35,867 nt of DNA from a virus (IMGVR_UViG_2563366856_000003:1-35867); one strand, 5' to 3'; positions 25,233 through 31,801 are shown, numbered from the stretch's first letter. Notes: generated by a model not told the origin, from the letters alone. Made by a program: numbers and translations.

Positions 25233-26266
25233 TGAGCAAGAAAAAAGGGAAAACACCGCAACCTGCGGCAAAAAAAATGACCGCCAGCGCCCCGAAAATG
25301 GCGGCATTCACCTTTGGTGAGCCGGTGCCGGTACTCGACCGCCGTGATATTCTGGATTACGTCGAGTGCATCAGTAACGGCAGATGGTATGAGCCACCGG
25401 TCAGCTTTACCGGTCTGGCAAAAAGCCTGCGTGCTGCCGTGCATCACAGCTCACCGATTTACGTCAAACGTAATATTCTGGCCTCAACGTTTATCCCGCA
25501 CCCGTGGCTTTCCCAGCAGGATTTCAGCCGCTTTGTGCTGGATTTTCTGGTGTTCGGTAATGCGTTTCTGGAAAAGCGTTACAGCACTACCGGTAAGGTC
25601 ATCAGACTGGAAACCTCACCGGCAAAATATACCCGCCGTGGGGTGGAGGAGGATGTTTACTGGTGGGTGCCGTCCTTCAACGAGCCGACACCTTTCACGC
25701 CCGGCTCCGTGTTTCACCTGCTGGAGCCGGATATTAATCAGGAGCTGTACGGCCTGCCGGAATATCTCAGCGCCCTTAACTCTGCCTGGCTGAATGAGTC
25801 GGCCACGCTGTTCCGCCGCAAGTATTACGAAAACGGCGCACATGCCGGATACATCATGTACGTCACTGATGCCGTGCAGGATCGCAACGATATCGAAATG
25901 CTTCGCGAAAACATGGTGAAGTCGAAAGGCCGCAACAACTTTAAAAACCTGTTTCTCTATGCCCCACAGGGAAAAGCCGACGGCATTAAAATTATCCCGC
26001 TCAGTGAAGTGGCGACGAAGGACGATTTTTTTAATATCAAAAAAGCCAGTGCCGCAGACCTGCTGGACGCGCACCGCATCCCCTTTCAGTTGATGGGCGG
26101 CAAGCCGGAGAACGTCGGGTCGCTGGGTGATATTGAGAAAGTGGCAAAGGTCTTTGTCCGCAATGAGCTTATCCCGTTACAGGACAGGATCCGTGAGATA
26201 AACGGCTGGCTCGGTCAGGAGGTCATCCGCTTTAAAAACTACTCACTGGACACTGACAACGGCTGA
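25232..26266 (+). CDS. Q: Portal protein Q
   Basis: 344-aa ORF matching P2 gpQ; start overlaps P stop. Confidence 0.95.
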   Translation: MSKKKGKTPQPAAKKMTASAPKMAAFTFGEPVPVLDRRDILDYVECISNGRWYEPPVSFTGLAKSLRAAVHHSSPIYVKRNILASTFIPHPWLSQQDFSRFVLDFLVFGNAFLEKRYSTTGKVIRLETSPAKYTRRGVEEDVYWWVPSFNEPTPFTPGSVFHLLEPDINQELYGLPEYLSALNSAWLNESATLFRRKYYENGAHAGYIMYVTDAVQDRNDIEMLRENMVKSKGRNNFKNLFLYAPQGKADGIKIIPLSEVATKDDFFNIKKASAADLLDAHRIPFQLMGGKPENVGSLGDIEKVAKVFVRNELIPLQDRIREINGWLGQEVIRFKNYSLDTDNG

Positions 26267-26271
26267 ACATC

Positions 26272-26293
26272 GCCGCCTGCGGGCGGCTTTTTT
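26272..26293 (+). terminator. Intrinsic terminator after Q
   Basis: GCCGCC-TGCG-GGCGGC hairpin followed by TTTTTT directly after the Q stop. Confidence 0.55.
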
Positions 26294-26434
26294 ACACCCC
26301 GTCATCACGCCCTCACACGCTCACCACCGCACAAAACACCCCGCAGACACACCAACGCCCCGGCGCACAATCTAAACGCCATCACGACGCGCTGAGACGC
26401 TAAAAAATAAAATCAGCACCACCGCCAGCGCGCA

Positions 26435-26453
26435 GTGCTTTCCCCGCCTCGCC
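26435..26453. other. cos: cos site (19-nt cohesive end of P2-type phages)
   Basis: GTGCTTTCCCCGCCTCGCC is the reverse complement of the recalled P2 cohesive end GGCGAGGCGGGGAAAGCAC; located after Q as in P2. Confidence 0.7.
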
Positions 26454-26595
26454 CGCCCGCTTCGTGGGGCGGTTTTAATGCAGATGCATTATGAGCCCTG
26501 AGCTGCGCCTAACGTGACACAGTTCACGAGAAAAATAGGAATTATCAAATGCAATTTCATGCAGATAGAGAGGCATGAGATCCCGAAGCATATAT

Positions 26596-27948
26596 TCAAC
26601 CCTCTGCCGAAATATTTCTTTGGAGAAATGCTCTAATTTTTTGCCTGAAAGCCTCACATTCATCAGGCTTTAACCTCTCAAGGTATTCAAAAACCCTAGT
26701 TTCATCCCAGCCGTTGTTATAGGTTTTCACTACCCCTCGATAAACTTGCTTATCAAGTTTATCGTTACCTCTAGTTGTAACTCTCGGGATCGATTCATCT
26801 TGGCCGTATGCTTGATAGAAATCCTTCTCAACGCTTTGGAAAGGTATGCATAAAATATTTTCACCTCGAGCATGCCTTTGACCTAATTGATCTCCGTCTA
26901 ACACTGAGATCACATTCTGTTGAGTCGTGAGAAAGCTCTCTCTCTCATTACGACGCATTAAATCAATGACATTAGTTCCTCCACCAACATATATTATTTT
27001 ATATTCGTAGAAGTAATCATTCCCAGGAGCATTAATTATATATTCTAAGAAATTTTGCAGAACTTCATCTTCAGTAAGAATGTACTTATCCCATCCTTTA
27101 AATCCAAAAAGCGTACTTTTTATATAATTATATGATCGATTTGTAATTGTAGTTCCAGCATCACCTTCGCACATATAGTACAATTCATCATCATTCAGCG
27201 TTTGCATTAAAGCAAGTGAATGTGTTGTGAATACAATATTCACCGAGTGTCTCTGACAATATTTCCTTAGCACTGCTATAAGATGGACTTGCGCCGAAGA
27301 GTCTAGTGATATATCTATCTCATCTATGACAATGAATTTTCTTTTGAGCTCAATCATTCTAAATAAATTCAAAATAAAATACTCACCCGAGCTAAAGTAA
27401 TCCTCCCTTATGTATGTTCCGTTCTCATTCAATCTGAAATAGAAAATTTCATTTTTTACAGAAAATGCTTTAAGATTATTGTAAGAAGAAGACTGATATA
27501 CCTCATTGAGTATATTTATCAAATCCTCGGGAACGCTATAGCTTTCAAACGCAATACTTTTTCTAAGTTCAGTATCAATTTTACTAAGTGTTGGGAAGTT
27601 ATTGAACCTCATTCCATGAGGAATGGGCAACTCGACATAAAGATTGGATTTTATATCTGCTGGAATTATTTGCTTAGTATCTATTACCTTCAAATTCTCA
27701 TCATAGACATATACTATATCTTGATCATTAATATTATATACTATACTACTGTCAGGATTGAATATATATCTAGAAGATGTCTTTATGAATGTATCTGCTG
27801 ATTGTAAATTTTTAATTGCTTTGATTAGCGTTGTCTTTCCAGCACCGTTCTTTCCTACAATGCAAGTCAGTTTATTTTCAGAAAGATCAATAGCAAATGA
27901 CATATGTTCAACATGCTGGATTTTCGAGATCTCAATGTTTATTTTCAT
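26596..27948 (-). CDS. OLD-like ABC-type ATPase with C-terminal Toprim-like region (candidate effector of RT-associated defence system)
   Basis: 450-aa ORF: Walker A GKNGAGKTT, signature-like SSGEYF, Walker B FIVIDEID, H-loop TTHS, then TEDE ... VLDGDQ resembling Toprim Glu and DxD; ATG one base after the RT stop; AT-rich. Confidence 0.8.
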   Translation of the reverse strand: MKINIEISKIQHVEHMSFAIDLSENKLTCIVGKNGAGKTTLIKAIKNLQSADTFIKTSSRYIFNPDSSIVYNINDQDIVYVYDENLKVIDTKQIIPADIKSNLYVELPIPHGMRFNNFPTLSKIDTELRKSIAFESYSVPEDLINILNEVYQSSSYNNLKAFSVKNEIFYFRLNENGTYIREDYFSSGEYFILNLFRMIELKRKFIVIDEIDISLDSSAQVHLIAVLRKYCQRHSVNIVFTTHSLALMQTLNDDELYYMCEGDAGTTITNRSYNYIKSTLFGFKGWDKYILTEDEVLQNFLEYIINAPGNDYFYEYKIIYVGGGTNVIDLMRRNERESFLTTQQNVISVLDGDQLGQRHARGENILCIPFQSVEKDFYQAYGQDESIPRVTTRGNDKLDKQVYRGVVKTYNNGWDETRVFEYLERLKPDECEAFRQKIRAFLQRNISAEG

Positions 27949-27949
27949 T

Positions 27950-28939
27950 TTAATTTACATTCTTGTAAAAAAGCATATCGACAATCGTATTTCCGTATTT
28001 TCTCTTTAGCTTATCGAGATAACTCTTATCAATTGTGTTTATATGATTCAAAAGACCAGAAACTGTATTAATGCCCTTTTCCAAGATCTCACTATCATTC
28101 AATCCGCTAGTTTTAACCTTAGGATCTTTTATTATAGAATCTATAAATTTATCTTTATCCGTTACATAAAAATGAATCAAATGCTCAAGCTTTCTTTTTA
28201 TTTTAATATCAACAGAGACTATCTGAGACGGTAAAATAACCATCCCCAGCAGCTTAATCTTACTGCCTTTTTTAATCAATTTAGTTTTTGCTGAGTTTAG
28301 TTTGAAATGTCCCTTCCCAAACTCACCCAGCAGGTCACTTACTACAGAATGAATATTCTCAAAGCCCTCATCATTTTCAGAGGAAATAATAATATCATCT
28401 GAATAGCGTGTGAATATATATTCATGGTTAATACAATATTGCTGCATCTCAACATCAAAGTCATATAAACATGCATTGCTGAAAGCTGGTGATGTCGGGA
28501 ACCCTACAGGCAACGAATTATCGATAATAATATAATCTAAAATTTTATCCAAGTGTATATTTAAATCGGAAATGGGAACGTTCGATAAGTTATCAACTAA
28601 AACTGATCGTGCATATTCACGAGTTATCGATGGGAAAAAGCTTTTAATATCAGTATTGAAGAATATCTTACTACAGGCGTGAAGTTTTACTGCATCATAA
28701 GTGCTGCTTCCTTTTCTATACGAAAACACAACATCCTTATTTACTTTCAAGTATGAAAGAACAAATTCATTTATGAATTTGTGATACTCTTTTAGTTTAG
28801 AAGTGGGCTCAGCAATTAACCTTTCATCAAAGGTTATAAATTTAGTTTGTTGAAATGGTTCAAACGAAAGAAAGTTTTGAAAGGAATCTTTTTCGAAGAA
28901 TGCAATATTGAAGGCTTTTTCGAGACTAAGGGGTTTCAT
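27950..28939 (-). CDS. Reverse transcriptase, retron-type size
   Basis: 329-aa ORF with RT motifs NTDIKSFFPSI (motif A-like), LPVGFPTSPAFSNACL (motif B'), YSDD (YxDD catalytic motif C); AT-rich; sits at the P2 old/tin position. Confidence 0.85.
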   Translation of the reverse strand: MKPLSLEKAFNIAFFEKDSFQNFLSFEPFQQTKFITFDERLIAEPTSKLKEYHKFINEFVLSYLKVNKDVVFSYRKGSSTYDAVKLHACSKIFFNTDIKSFFPSITREYARSVLVDNLSNVPISDLNIHLDKILDYIIIDNSLPVGFPTSPAFSNACLYDFDVEMQQYCINHEYIFTRYSDDIIISSENDEGFENIHSVVSDLLGEFGKGHFKLNSAKTKLIKKGSKIKLLGMVILPSQIVSVDIKIKRKLEHLIHFYVTDKDKFIDSIIKDPKVKTSGLNDSEILEKGINTVSGLLNHINTIDKSYLDKLKRKYGNTIVDMLFYKNVN

Positions 28940-29265
28940 CGTTGGCTGAGCTTTTGTTTTTTGAGTTGAATGGATTCTAAGATGAATGCTTTAACTCTCA
29001 GTCTTTCCTCACCCCAGACACCCTCCCTTCGCAGACTTTACTTCTTGTACATACCTTCTCTCGAAAGAGAAGGCAGTACAAGAGCAACACTATATAAAGG
29101 CCTGTAGAGGCCAACATTTATGACTGGAGATGCTCCTAGTCGTTGGCATAAAAACACTTTAAACCAGATTATGAGCATTTACAACATTTCAAGCCGTCGA
29201 ACGCAGCCCCAATCAGAAAAGAACTCACACGGCCATCATAACATCATGATTTAGATGGATATAAA
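28940..29265 (-). ncRNA. Candidate retron non-coding RNA (msr-msd) region upstream of the RT
   Basis: Non-coding 326 bp between A stop and RT start on the RT strand with several stable stem-loops: composite 15-bp stem 29044-29082 with 4-nt loop (UUCG on the RT strand), hairpins at 29099-29112 and 29110-29147; a1/a2 terminal repeats not identified. Confidence 0.45.
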
Positions 29266-31536
29266 TCACCCTTCATGCTTCACCCACTCGTCCGCTATCG
29301 GGTATACAAATCTTTTTTCGCCATAAACCACTATTCCGCCACGAGCCAGCGCCTGAAGTTCCCACCGCTGCGGCGTGATACCCTGCTGCGCCAGTTCGAA
29401 GCGGATGCGCGGAATCTGAGCCCTCTCGGCTTTTGTCATTCGCCCTGATGGTGCTATCTGATGCGGTTTTAATGGCTCATCGCTTCTTTGCTGTCGATTT
29501 TGCTGCGGCGCGCCGTGTTTTAATGCACTCCTGAGCACCGTCACAACTTCGGGGTCATCCCATGCAATAACCCCATCATCGACAAGATTTAGCACCGCTG
29601 CCGCATGCTCAGACGGCGTAGGTGTCATAACTGGATCGCCACCGTCGGCAAGCTTTCCACAGTTATTGACAGGACTCCGAGGCGCGGCGATGCCGCTTTT
29701 TAAAGTCAAAGGCTCAACGACCGGAACTTTCGGCACAATGCGCCAGTCCGTCGTTCTGGTGATATGAATATGACGCGCGCCGAGATGCGGCGCGTAAATG
29801 CCGACCACTCTCTCGACTTCTTCCTCGTACTCGTTAACGTCATCCGACGGGCTACGGGCAACCCTGACAGTCTGACAATCGCGCGGGACATTTGCCCCAC
29901 CCTGCGCGCTGATATACAACGCAAAATCACCACTGTCTGCGGCAGCACGAGCAGCCTCGACGCGTTCGTCAAACTCATCAGCAATACTGACGCCGCGAGG
30001 CAATTTGCGTAGTTCACGGTAAGCCCCCATTGTCGGCAGTCCAACCGTTTTAAATTGCGGGATGCGCCACGTTGACGCCCATGCGGTAACAGCCGCGGCA
30101 GTATCTTTCAGCGGCCTGCCGGTATCGTTATCGAGCTGCCCATCCAGTGCATAGCCGTCGATATTTTTTGAGATATATTTCGCGATATACCCCGCAGCAC
30201 CGCCCCGGTTAAGATGTTTTGCCTGAAAACGGTTTCGCGCGGCTCCTCTTTCGTCGCCATCCTCTTTGAGCGCATAGCGACGCATGATTTCGATAATCTG
30301 GTTACGCTGGCGTGGATTACAAAAAAGCATCATATGCCAGTGCGGCGTTCCGTCGTGGTGTGGCTCGACGACACGCAAACCGTAGACCTGTAAATCATTA
30401 TCCTTGAATGCCGTGCGCATCAGGCTCCAGATACGGCAGAGATAACGCTGCGCATCCTTTGGATTAAATGCCTCATCGTTCCAACCGTGATTAAGCTGCA
30501 CGGTTTTACTTTCGCCTTTTCCGACCTGACGTGTCGGGTGATACTTTGACGGCGCGGTCAGCGTGATAAACATCCCCACATCACCCTCTGCAGCGGCGTA
30601 ACGCTCAATACCGGCAATGGTGTTCATCAGCTCCATCCGGCGAATTTCAGGATTAGAAATACTGCCCATCACCTTACTGATAAGGTCGATGCGCTCGCCG
30701 GTTTCCCTGTTTTCAAGGTCACACGATTTAAGAAACTCCAGATTTGCCTGGCGGCGCGCACGCACATCACGAATGGCATGTTTACTGGCATAAGGTGAAC
30801 GGTCTTTATTGACCTCCCCGACAGCAATCAGTAACGCTTCATGCCAGCGCATACGCTGGCCTTTAAGCTGATGAGTCCACCACTCATCGTTAAACAGACG
30901 GGCAATGGCAGAATATGCCTGCCTCGTGGTCATCTGCCCTTTACGGTATTTTTTCCAGTAGAGAGGGGAAATATTGAAAGCACGTGCAGCGCCAGCAACA
31001 TGACCATAGAGGTGAGCCTGCGCCTCATCCGTAAACAGCGATTCTTTTTCGCCATGCGCATCCACCCAGGCATCGCTGAGTTCCTCATACATCATGAAAA
31101 GCTGCGATGAGATACGGGCAGCAAACTTTTTCAGCTCCTTGTCATTCATTCCCGGCAGGCGCGCATAGTGGTCACGCTCTGCCAGAAACAGTAACGACGC
31201 GTCGGTGTTCATTTCATGGCGCTGATTCACACGCTCAATGCGCGGCCATAAACGACGCTGAAAAGTGGATGTGAGGAAATAAAACCCGTGTACCGGGCTT
31301 TTATTGCGCCGGATGTAGTCATAGCGTGAAGTAAACAGCGAGCGCAAAAAGTAAGGCAGGCGGTTAATCGTGGATAAAACACCTTGCACCTGACGCATCT
31401 CGTCACGTGTAAGGGGTCTTTCGCGCCCGACGGCCTCGCGTGGCGCGTTCCATGCATAAGCACCGGTAAACGCCTTACCGGTGCCTGCAGCAAATGCTGA
31501 AGGAGGGACAAAACGCCCGGAGGCTTTAACGGCCAT
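29266..31536 (-). CDS. A: Replication initiation protein A (rolling-circle nickase)
   Basis: Matches P2 gpA from MAVKASGRFVPPSAFAAGTGK...; start set to the internal ATG at 31534-31536 corresponding to the P2 start (the ORF-track start 31578 adds 14 aa); C-terminal about 100 aa diverge from P2. Confidence 0.9.
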   Translation of the reverse strand: MAVKASGRFVPPSAFAAGTGKAFTGAYAWNAPREAVGRERPLTRDEMRQVQGVLSTINRLPYFLRSLFTSRYDYIRRNKSPVHGFYFLTSTFQRRLWPRIERVNQRHEMNTDASLLFLAERDHYARLPGMNDKELKKFAARISSQLFMMYEELSDAWVDAHGEKESLFTDEAQAHLYGHVAGAARAFNISPLYWKKYRKGQMTTRQAYSAIARLFNDEWWTHQLKGQRMRWHEALLIAVGEVNKDRSPYASKHAIRDVRARRQANLEFLKSCDLENRETGERIDLISKVMGSISNPEIRRMELMNTIAGIERYAAAEGDVGMFITLTAPSKYHPTRQVGKGESKTVQLNHGWNDEAFNPKDAQRYLCRIWSLMRTAFKDNDLQVYGLRVVEPHHDGTPHWHMMLFCNPRQRNQIIEIMRRYALKEDGDERGAARNRFQAKHLNRGGAAGYIAKYISKNIDGYALDGQLDNDTGRPLKDTAAAVTAWASTWRIPQFKTVGLPTMGAYRELRKLPRGVSIADEFDERVEAARAAADSGDFALYISAQGGANVPRDCQTVRVARSPSDDVNEYEEEVERVVGIYAPHLGARHIHITRTTDWRIVPKVPVVEPLTLKSGIAAPRSPVNNCGKLADGGDPVMTPTPSEHAAAVLNLVDDGVIAWDDPEVVTVLRSALKHGAPQQNRQQRSDEPLKPHQIAPSGRMTKAERAQIPRIRFELAQQGITPQRWELQALARGGIVVYGEKRFVYPIADEWVKHEG
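29666..29685 (-). other. ori: Probable origin of replication (A-protein nick site) inside gene A
   Basis: Minus strand reads GCGCCTCGGAGTCCTGTCAA, matching the recalled P2 ori nick-site sequence located within the A coding region. Confidence 0.5.
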
Positions 31537-31801
31537 ATAAGCCAAAAGCCTCTGAACAACGCCTGCTGAGTTGCTCAACCTGCGCGTTTAAATCAGCAAA
31601 AGACTTTGCGCTTCCGGTCAGAATATCGTGATGCATCAGGCCGGAAACGAGCTGGCTTAATTTCGGATAATAACCAACCACCGCCAGCCATTCCTGACCG
31701 GCGTTTTTACCGCTTTCCGCTCTCTTTTTCTCGTGGAGAATAAACTGAAAGCTGTCACTGGTAACGACATAACGTTCGCCAATTTCAATACGAATACTCA
31801 T
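31526..31801 (-). CDS. Hypothetical early-operon protein (P2 orf83 position)
   Basis: 91-aa ORF immediately upstream of A in the early operon; function unknown. Confidence 0.6.
   Translation of the reverse strand: MSIRIEIGERYVVTSDSFQFILHEKKRAESGKNAGQEWLAVVGYYPKLSQLVSGLMHHDILTGSAKSFADLNAQVEQLSRRCSEAFGLYGR

Follow-up and report, generated by a model that had tools for sequence, protein, structure and literature searches.

The 326-nt gap between replication gene A and a reverse transcriptase (RT) gene in a P2-like prophage of E. coli probably contains, at ~29184-29032 on the minus strand, the noncoding RNA (ncRNA) gene of a type I-B1 retron that works by the mechanism proposed below. The window, that is, the whole stretch of viral DNA that we analysed (IMGVR_UViG_2563366856_000003), is 35,867 nt long. 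Retrons of this kind are already known and have been little studied, and the window adds a further member. The analysis puts a name to a 120-nt RNA gene that had gone unannotated in the defence cassette of a prophage, and its comparative boundaries can be used directly for correct expression of the RNA. It also raises the question of how DNA synthesis is primed without terminal repeats or an invariant G. The non-classical layout, the invertible RNA gene and the priming puzzle are properties of the subtype and are not peculiar to the window.

A prophage cassette assigned to retron type I-B1

In the window, a P2-like E. coli prophage, the minus strand reads gene A, the 326-nt gap, the RT and a 450-aa ATPase (Table 1). 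Portal and large terminase genes of P2 type lie beyond the effector on the plus strand, and the cargo is flanked by gpA, terminase and portal. Homology to P2-type phages resumes at ~26489; the cargo therefore occupies the P2-like variable region, a known retron cargo site (PMC9122126), and the retron sits there between replication gene A and cos/portal. The same cassette is present in 10 complete E. coli genomes at 97.6-99.9% identity, where its only labels are 'reverse transcriptase family protein' and 'AAA family ATPase'; no feature was annotated under the gap match in any of the 10. A 62-aa ORF (26475-26663, minus strand) overlaps the end of the effector gene and reaches the cargo edge; PADLOC gave no match for it.

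The best PADLOC model for the RT was RT_I-B, and the next-best were all retron RT models. Its relatives in the PDB were likewise retron RTs, though it is unlike every retron RT of solved structure (best match 83 bits). Two motifs given as retron-specific in the available part of the 2020 classification, NAxxH and VTG (PMC7736814), are missing in the window RT, which has NACLY and LGM in their places. These variants also appear in the consensus of 37 RT homologues, and the catalytic YSDD is invariant in all 37. The effector carries a Walker A motif (GKNGAGKT) and the Toprim motifs EDEVL and DGD. According to the same part of that classification, subtype I-B1 comprises loci where a clade-1 RT precedes an ABC-ATPase + Toprim protein carrying EDxxL and DxD, and the type had no described member in 2020 (PMC7736814). 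Because EDEVL and DGD correspond to this signature and the gene order, RT then OLD, matches the class 3B OLD / I-B1 layout, the locus is assigned by its sequence to type I-B1, with an ncRNA gene, an RT and an OLD-family ATPase-Toprim effector. Against the PDB, the effector matched generic ABC ATPases only and no retron OLD; PDB searches found no solved structure of a type I-B1 RT or effector, and we found no defence assay of type I-B1 retrons in the literature searched.

Table 1. Features of the retron locus, in window coordinates.
Feature	Position	Strand	Remarks
Gene A replication endonuclease	29266-31578	minus	Phage_GPA 7e-124; stop codon at 29266
Junction, gpA stop codon to retron module	29200-29265	minus	unconserved, outside the conserved RNA
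Putative sigma-70 promoter of the ncRNA gene	29156-29184	minus	-35 TTGTAA 29184-29179, 17-nt spacer, -10 TAAAGT 29161-29156
Conserved 5' (msr-like) domain, 49 nt	29105-29153	minus	leader (U)AU, P1, invariant bulged hairpin, junction, P1 3' strand, CCUCUA
P1 5' strand GCCAAC	29142-29147	minus	pairs with 29115-29110
Nearly invariant hairpin GACU-A-GGAG CAU CUCC AGUC	29122-29141	minus	4+4 bp, bulged A, 3-nt loop
P1 3' strand GUUGGC	29110-29115	minus	pairs with 29147-29142
Single-stranded motif CCUCUA	29105-29110	minus	directly after P1; C, C, U invariant and A nearly so (61 sequences)
Linker CAGGCCUUUAUAUAGUG, 17 nt	29088-29104	minus	family length ~16-19 nt, CUA to UUAC
Long hairpin (msd-like template), 22 bp	29038-29087	minus	UUCG loop 29065-29062; base UUGCU/AGUAA
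GUCUG, candidate 3' strand of closing helix	29032-29036	minus	pairs with CAGGC 29104-29100; in core MFE
Spacer, conserved RNA to RT start codon	28940-29031	minus	conserved only among close relatives
Promoter-like site CTGAGA-16-TAGAAT	28974-29001	minus	pattern scan; between long hairpin and RT start
Retron reverse transcriptase (RT), 329 aa	27950-28939	minus	Pfam RVT_1 8e-19; PADLOC RT_I-B 4.5e-110; catalytic motif YSDD
Effector, OLD-family ABC-ATPase + Toprim nuclease, 450 aa	26596-27948	minus	PADLOC ATPase-Toprim_I-B 3.4e-179

A conserved core within the gap

A sequence-only reading of the gap had described three stem-loops on the RT strand and proposed 28940-29265 as a candidate msr-msd with uncertain boundaries. 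All three stem-loops lie where that reading placed them. The composite long hairpin has an outer CUUGUAC/GUACAAG stem and an inner CCUUCUCU/AGAGAAGG stem with a UUCG loop, and the bulged 6+7-bp hairpin consists of the GCCAAC/GUUGGC helix (P1) enclosing the nearly invariant hairpin. The third, GGCC UCUACA GGCC (29112-29099), is present in the sequence and is not conserved in relatives. Its 5' half is part of helix P1 and of the conserved CCUCUA, and the hairpin competes with P1 and with the CAGGC/GUCUG helix; we regard its flagging as terminator-like as incidental.

Folding of the minus strand, proposed in that reading as a check, showed the whole 326 nt to be more stable than shuffled sequences (z = -2.7, 0/100 shuffles). 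The 120-nt core at 29149-29030 gave z = -5.5 (0/200 shuffles). The proposal of an msr-msd upstream of the RT drew support from the RT and effector types, the covariance model, the msd-like hairpin and the cDNA of a homologue. The extent is narrower: the conserved RNA covers only ~29149-29032 of the 326 nt, and the conserved element with the promoter included only ~29184-29032. Homology to the loci of Erwinia (RT 88% identical) and Kluyvera (86%) sets in only at ~29199. An Rfam scan of 26000-30500 at E <= 10 returned two chance-level matches (E >= 2.5), both to unrelated eukaryotic families.

A covarying 5' domain and its predicted promoter

We assembled 89 related RT loci, 80 from one genome per species and nine from assemblies; an effector homologue directly follows the RT in 89/89. 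Most loci share one order of elements directly upstream of the RT: TTG...TAnnnT, CAU, a strand of 5-7 nt, Y-GACUAGGAG-YAK-CUCCRGUC, a variable stretch of 4-8 nt, a strand complementary to the one of 5-7 nt, C(U/C)CUA, a linker of near-fixed length, UUAC, the long hairpin and GUAA. The hairpin consensus is GACUAGGAG-YAU-CUCCAGUC, set inside the covarying P1 and followed by CCUCUA. Among 61 distinct sequences, all six pairs of P1 have changed on both sides. The inner hairpin is paired in 97.7% of cells in the same sequences, with G, A, C, the bulged A and several stem bases invariant. Taken together, P1 and the inner hairpin are paired in 92% of cells, as against 20-45% when the partner is slid, and the observed covariation was reached by 0/500 shuffles. 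We presume that the nearly invariant hairpin is the RT recognition element. A pairing of CCUCUA with the CUAGGAG of this hairpin was considered and rejected, the two being complementary only with a bulge; because both are invariant, covariation cannot test it.

In all lineages, TTG and TAnnnT elements stand at a fixed distance upstream of CAUG and P1, often with an extended -10 (TGnTAnaaT). This arrangement predicts an ncRNA promoter at 29184-29156 in the window and a transcript start at ~A29149. The window promoter matches the consensus at only 8/12 bases, which accounts for its absence from the pattern-scan list.

The sequence GCCAACGA occurs twice on the minus strand, at 29147-29140 (the P1 5' strand plus GA) and at 28947-28940, where its last letters are those of the RT start codon. 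Each copy is complementary to GUUGGC, the 3' strand of P1, so the start of RT translation could be covered by an alternative pairing. This feature is kept in the close relatives L001, L081 and L088 and absent in L083-L085; GUUAAC in L002 would still pair through G-U. A role for the direct repeat as a template-jump or a2-like element was dropped as a family feature because only close relatives retain the repeat.

A long hairpin that varies in sequence and keeps its pairing

The long hairpin reaches beyond the earlier reading, to UUGCU/AGUAA, and is present in both the MFE and the centroid folds. In an alignment of 12 Enterobacterales (RT 56-88% identical), RNAalifold predicted P1, the inner hairpin and the 22-bp hairpin; the 22 pairs of the latter were 97.3% paired, and eight of them had changed on both sides. 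Conservation in this alignment ends a few nt past AGUAA. Most of the 66 co-oriented loci analysed have a hairpin of 12-29 bp in this position, as have the divergent loci. Across the family its sequence and length vary, its position is fixed, and its base has the consensus YUAC...GUAR. By these alignments, the long hairpin evolves as an msd template stem does, free in sequence and constrained in pairing. The resemblance to an msd stem that had been noticed from the window sequence is thus borne out by fixed position, free sequence and compensatory changes across relatives. A retron RNA is expected to place one to three msr hairpins ahead of a long, stable msd stem-loop, and P1 with the invariant hairpin, followed by the 22-bp hairpin, agrees with that pattern.

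Around the base of the hairpin, CAGGC/GUCUG is a candidate for an internal, a1/a2-like closing helix, which is suggestive and not general. It is 64.6% paired in the Enterobacterales alignment. Some relatives have a longer version, CAGGCC/GGCCUG (6 bp) in L002, UACAGGCC/GGCCUGUA (8 bp) in L088 and 7 bp in L021, and the helix is also found in L081 (6-7 bp), L019 and L011. Over the family, it beats shuffles in only 11/62 loci (p <= 0.05), with a mean z of -0.29. In the Photorhabdus loci L003-L006 and L087, the 10-nt sequence ACGAGCCUUU stands once in the linker and a second time ~20 nt after the long hairpin; this direct repeat is exact in L003 and near-exact in the others.

Across the family, a spacer of 16-434 nt separates the RNA from the RT. 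Short tandem repeats make up this spacer at some loci, among them L019 with (CTCCAG)n, L030 with (CACTCTCAG)n and L084 with (CAAATAGG)n.

The RNA module accompanies the RT and can be inverted

We built a covariance model, R1, of the 49-nt 5' domain. Its single strong match in the 35.9-kb window was at 29153-29105 on the RT strand (69.8 bits, E 1.3e-15). A second match inside gene A (30837-30865, plus strand; 18.2 bits, E 0.016) had large deletions and is probably due to chance. Among the related loci, R1 gave one match beside the RT in 87/89, plus two weak matches. There was exactly one match in each of the 60 building loci, and 21/23 loci outside model building were matched at >= 41.9 bits, besides two weak matches. 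In the reverse test, the invariant 20-mer was found in 15 IMG/VR viral contigs, 14 of which had an I-B1 RT within ~70-420 nt; the fifteenth was a context-free match inside a 588-aa ORF. Essentially no relative has the RT and the OLD-type effector without the RNA module.

[quoted passage not shown] The viral contig L094 also has an inverted RNA gene. Each of the 18 has a -10-like TAnnAT box 5-7 nt before CAUG. The inverted loci have the same domain, linker and hairpin, and their conservation ends abruptly at GUAGA; in both orientations, it stops at the 3' base of the hairpin. An RNA gene that runs opposite to the RT in 18 relatives must have its own promoter, and its inversion leaves no place for an a2 at or inside the RT gene. 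The comparison thus describes the RNA gene as a self-contained unit with a predicted promoter of its own that can work as a separate transcript. Since the protein genes of inverted-RNA loci must be transcribed independently, the promoter-like site at 28974-29001 in the window may drive the protein genes separately from the RNA gene. Opposite-strand RNAs are not mentioned in the available part of the text of Mestre et al. (PMC7736814).

Terminal repeats and candidate priming sites

From the window sequence alone, a1/a2 repeats could not be identified by eye, and a search for them and for a priming G had been suggested. The caution was justified. Terminal a1/a2 repeats enclosing msr and msd were not found, and complements of the 5' end downstream of the hairpin occurred at chance level only, the sporadic ones being due to loci with a palindromic CUAG in P1. 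The partner of the 5'-terminal strand is the P1 3' strand, which lies upstream of the long hairpin.

Nor did right-aligned linkers from 72 loci contain an invariant unpaired G. The position just before the hairpin (-1) is a G in 37/72 loci; most of the remainder have UUACG. In the window, G29088 and G29090 are the only unpaired G residues near the hairpin base, and we name them as low-confidence priming candidates. The best candidates for a priming helix are the hairpin base or the weak CAGGC/GUCUG pairing, with G29088 or G29090 as primer. G29141 is invariant, yet its equivalent is copied in the cDNA of a homologue.

Published RT-DNA from type I-B1 homologues

Khan et al. included two I-B1 retrons in their census, and both were scored '0 by PAGE', with no RT-DNA band (PMC10849725). 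For one of them, Terminal 308 of Pseudomonas (Atopomonas) hussainii, sequencing recovered an RT-DNA of 116 nt (PMC10849725). This product has its start opposite the final A of AGUAAAAAA, in the 3' base of the hairpin, and its end opposite the 5' strand of P1; compared with the reference, one nucleotide is deleted in its loop (PMC10849725). The deletion marks the RT-DNA as a real copy. The native locus of Terminal 308 is our L089, and the tested RNA has exactly the architecture described here. For the other, Terminal 314 of Burkholderia pseudomallei, the RNA started after the 5' domain and gave no RT-DNA (PMC10849725); this RNA ends inside the RT gene, with a 9-bp CGGCUCUGC/GCAGAGCUG pairing (PMC10849725).

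One of these RNAs includes the 5' domain and the other does not, so the published boundaries of I-B1 RNAs are inconsistent. Together, the two results support the long hairpin as template and its 3' base as the place where synthesis begins; production of the cDNA probably requires the 5' domain. As neither retron gave a band on gels, the sequenced cDNA may be a minor or aberrant product. The Terminal 308 product runs through the 'msr', unlike the products of classical retrons. It reads through every candidate G, which is difficult to square with a 2'-5' branch on the very molecule that is copied. We also considered the 'non-canonical' census retron Kva1 as an I-B1 member and rejected it; it is type II-A1.

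Proposed mechanism

Under our proposal, the RNA would be transcribed from its own promoter, starting at ~29149, some 2 nt before P1, and the 5' domain (P1, hairpin and CCUCUA) would be the handle bound by the RT. DNA synthesis would start at the 3' base of the long hairpin (~A29038/A29037) and copy the hairpin, giving a cDNA of ~50-110 nt that covers plus-strand 29038 up to ~29090 or 29147. If it proceeds as in the sequenced homologue, the copy would continue through the linker and 5' domain to the P1 5' strand (29038-29147, ~110 nt). By analogy with Retron-Eco8, the RT/RNA/DNA complex would keep the OLD-family nuclease inactive until a phage factor disturbs the complex, and the released nuclease would then kill the infected cell.

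A more far-reaching reading, which we advance tentatively and think may well be wrong, is that the I-B1 RNA is a rearranged retron RNA. It would have a self-closed 5' RT-binding module, a template hairpin closed by its own conserved base in place of terminal a1/a2 repeats, and an autonomous gene that can lie on either strand, and the RT may copy nearly the whole RNA including the 'msr', possibly with non-classical priming. Priming in trans within an oligomer is one possibility. Were this reading true, the window element would be an E. coli representative, on a P2-like prophage, on which to test it.

Alternative explanations

The order of a structured 5' part, a long hairpin and an RT resembles classical retrons, and a textbook retron RNA would have a terminal a1/a2 pair, a branching G after a1 and an RT that stops before the msr. 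The invariant G29141 does follow directly on the P1 5' strand, as a branching G follows a1, and good helices enclose the hairpin in L088 (8 bp), L021 (7 bp), L019 and L011. We nevertheless judge this explanation quite improbable: the 5' strand finds its partner upstream of the long hairpin, in P1, with a second, downstream complement at chance level; conservation stops at the hairpin base; inversion of the RNA gene in 18 loci excludes an a2 at or in the RT gene; and the homologue cDNA covers the equivalent of G29141 together with the whole msr-like domain. It is also unlikely that the RNA binds or regulates the RT/effector complex while being reverse transcribed negligibly or not at all, with type I-B1 working without abundant msDNA. 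Such a role would fit the missing gel band for both census I-B1 retrons, the lack of an invariant priming G and an RT without NAxxH and VTG. It sits poorly with a discrete sequenced cDNA that has structurally meaningful ends and a deletion marking it as a copy, with a catalytic YSDD kept invariant in 37 homologues, and with a long hairpin that evolves like a template stem.

Two further explanations dispense with a functional RNA or replace it with a protein. The hairpins could be transcription signals of the phage or the cargo operon, serving as terminator behind gene A or as the attenuator or leader of the RT, given that the region directly follows the last gene of the P2 early operon and that the pattern scan lists GGCCUCUACAGGCC then UUUAUAUAGU as terminator-like. 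That hairpin is unconserved, however, and its 5' half covaries with the P1 5' strand; no U tract follows the long hairpin; and the element accompanies the RT outside phages (on the Atopomonas chromosome, L089) and in inverted orientation, all of which makes this explanation very unlikely. We give almost no credence to a small protein encoded in the region: there are six overlapping ORFs of 23-46 aa, but none spans the conserved block in frame across relatives, and conservation tracks base-pairing rather than reading frames, with compensatory changes and length-variable junctions and loops. The reading that we prefer remains an ncRNA gene of a type I-B1 retron.

Relation to known systems

Among the closest known systems, Mestre-308 (Retron Terminal 308) has, like the window, the order ncRNA, RT, ATPase-Toprim, with an RT that is 45% identical. 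It shares the 5' domain (R1 65 bits), CCUCUA, the linker length and the UUAC...GUAA hairpin base. Its hairpin has another sequence and is extended by CUGG/CCAG, which the window lacks; it is chromosomal and not in a prophage, and cDNA has been sequenced for Mestre-308 only.

Retron-Eco8 (type I-B2), which consists of RT, ncRNA and OLD nuclease and is triggered by phage SSB according to the available part of its report (PMC13402713), is likewise a three-part system with an OLD-family ATPase-Toprim protein and offers the best available model for control of the effector. Its RT belongs to another clade, to which the window RT scores only 36 bits, the window effector has no match to Eco8 chains at E <= 0.001, and its RNA is of another family. 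In I-B2, the OLD gene is upstream of the RT and the Toprim motif is EGxxE, whereas in the window it is downstream, with EDxxL.

The closest solved RTs are those of Ec78/Ec83 (type I-A) and St85/Ec73 (type II-A1), of RT clade 1 (E 1e-19 to 1e-16). In their RNAs, terminal repeats of 8-11 nt flank everything and the branching G comes after UUA, whereas the 5' strand in the window finds its partner ahead of the template hairpin; their effectors, PtuAB-like or NDT proteins, are also unlike that of the window. In Terminal 6, a clade-1 type I-A RNA of the census, the template hairpin likewise follows a CUCUAAC-like motif and has G-UAA in its 3' base. P2 old, which encodes a class 1 OLD nuclease, occupies the same variable region from gene A to cos, and its product is an OLD-family ATPase-Toprim protein like the window effector. 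P2 Old acts alone, without RT or RNA, whereas the window effector is of the retron-linked class 3B type.
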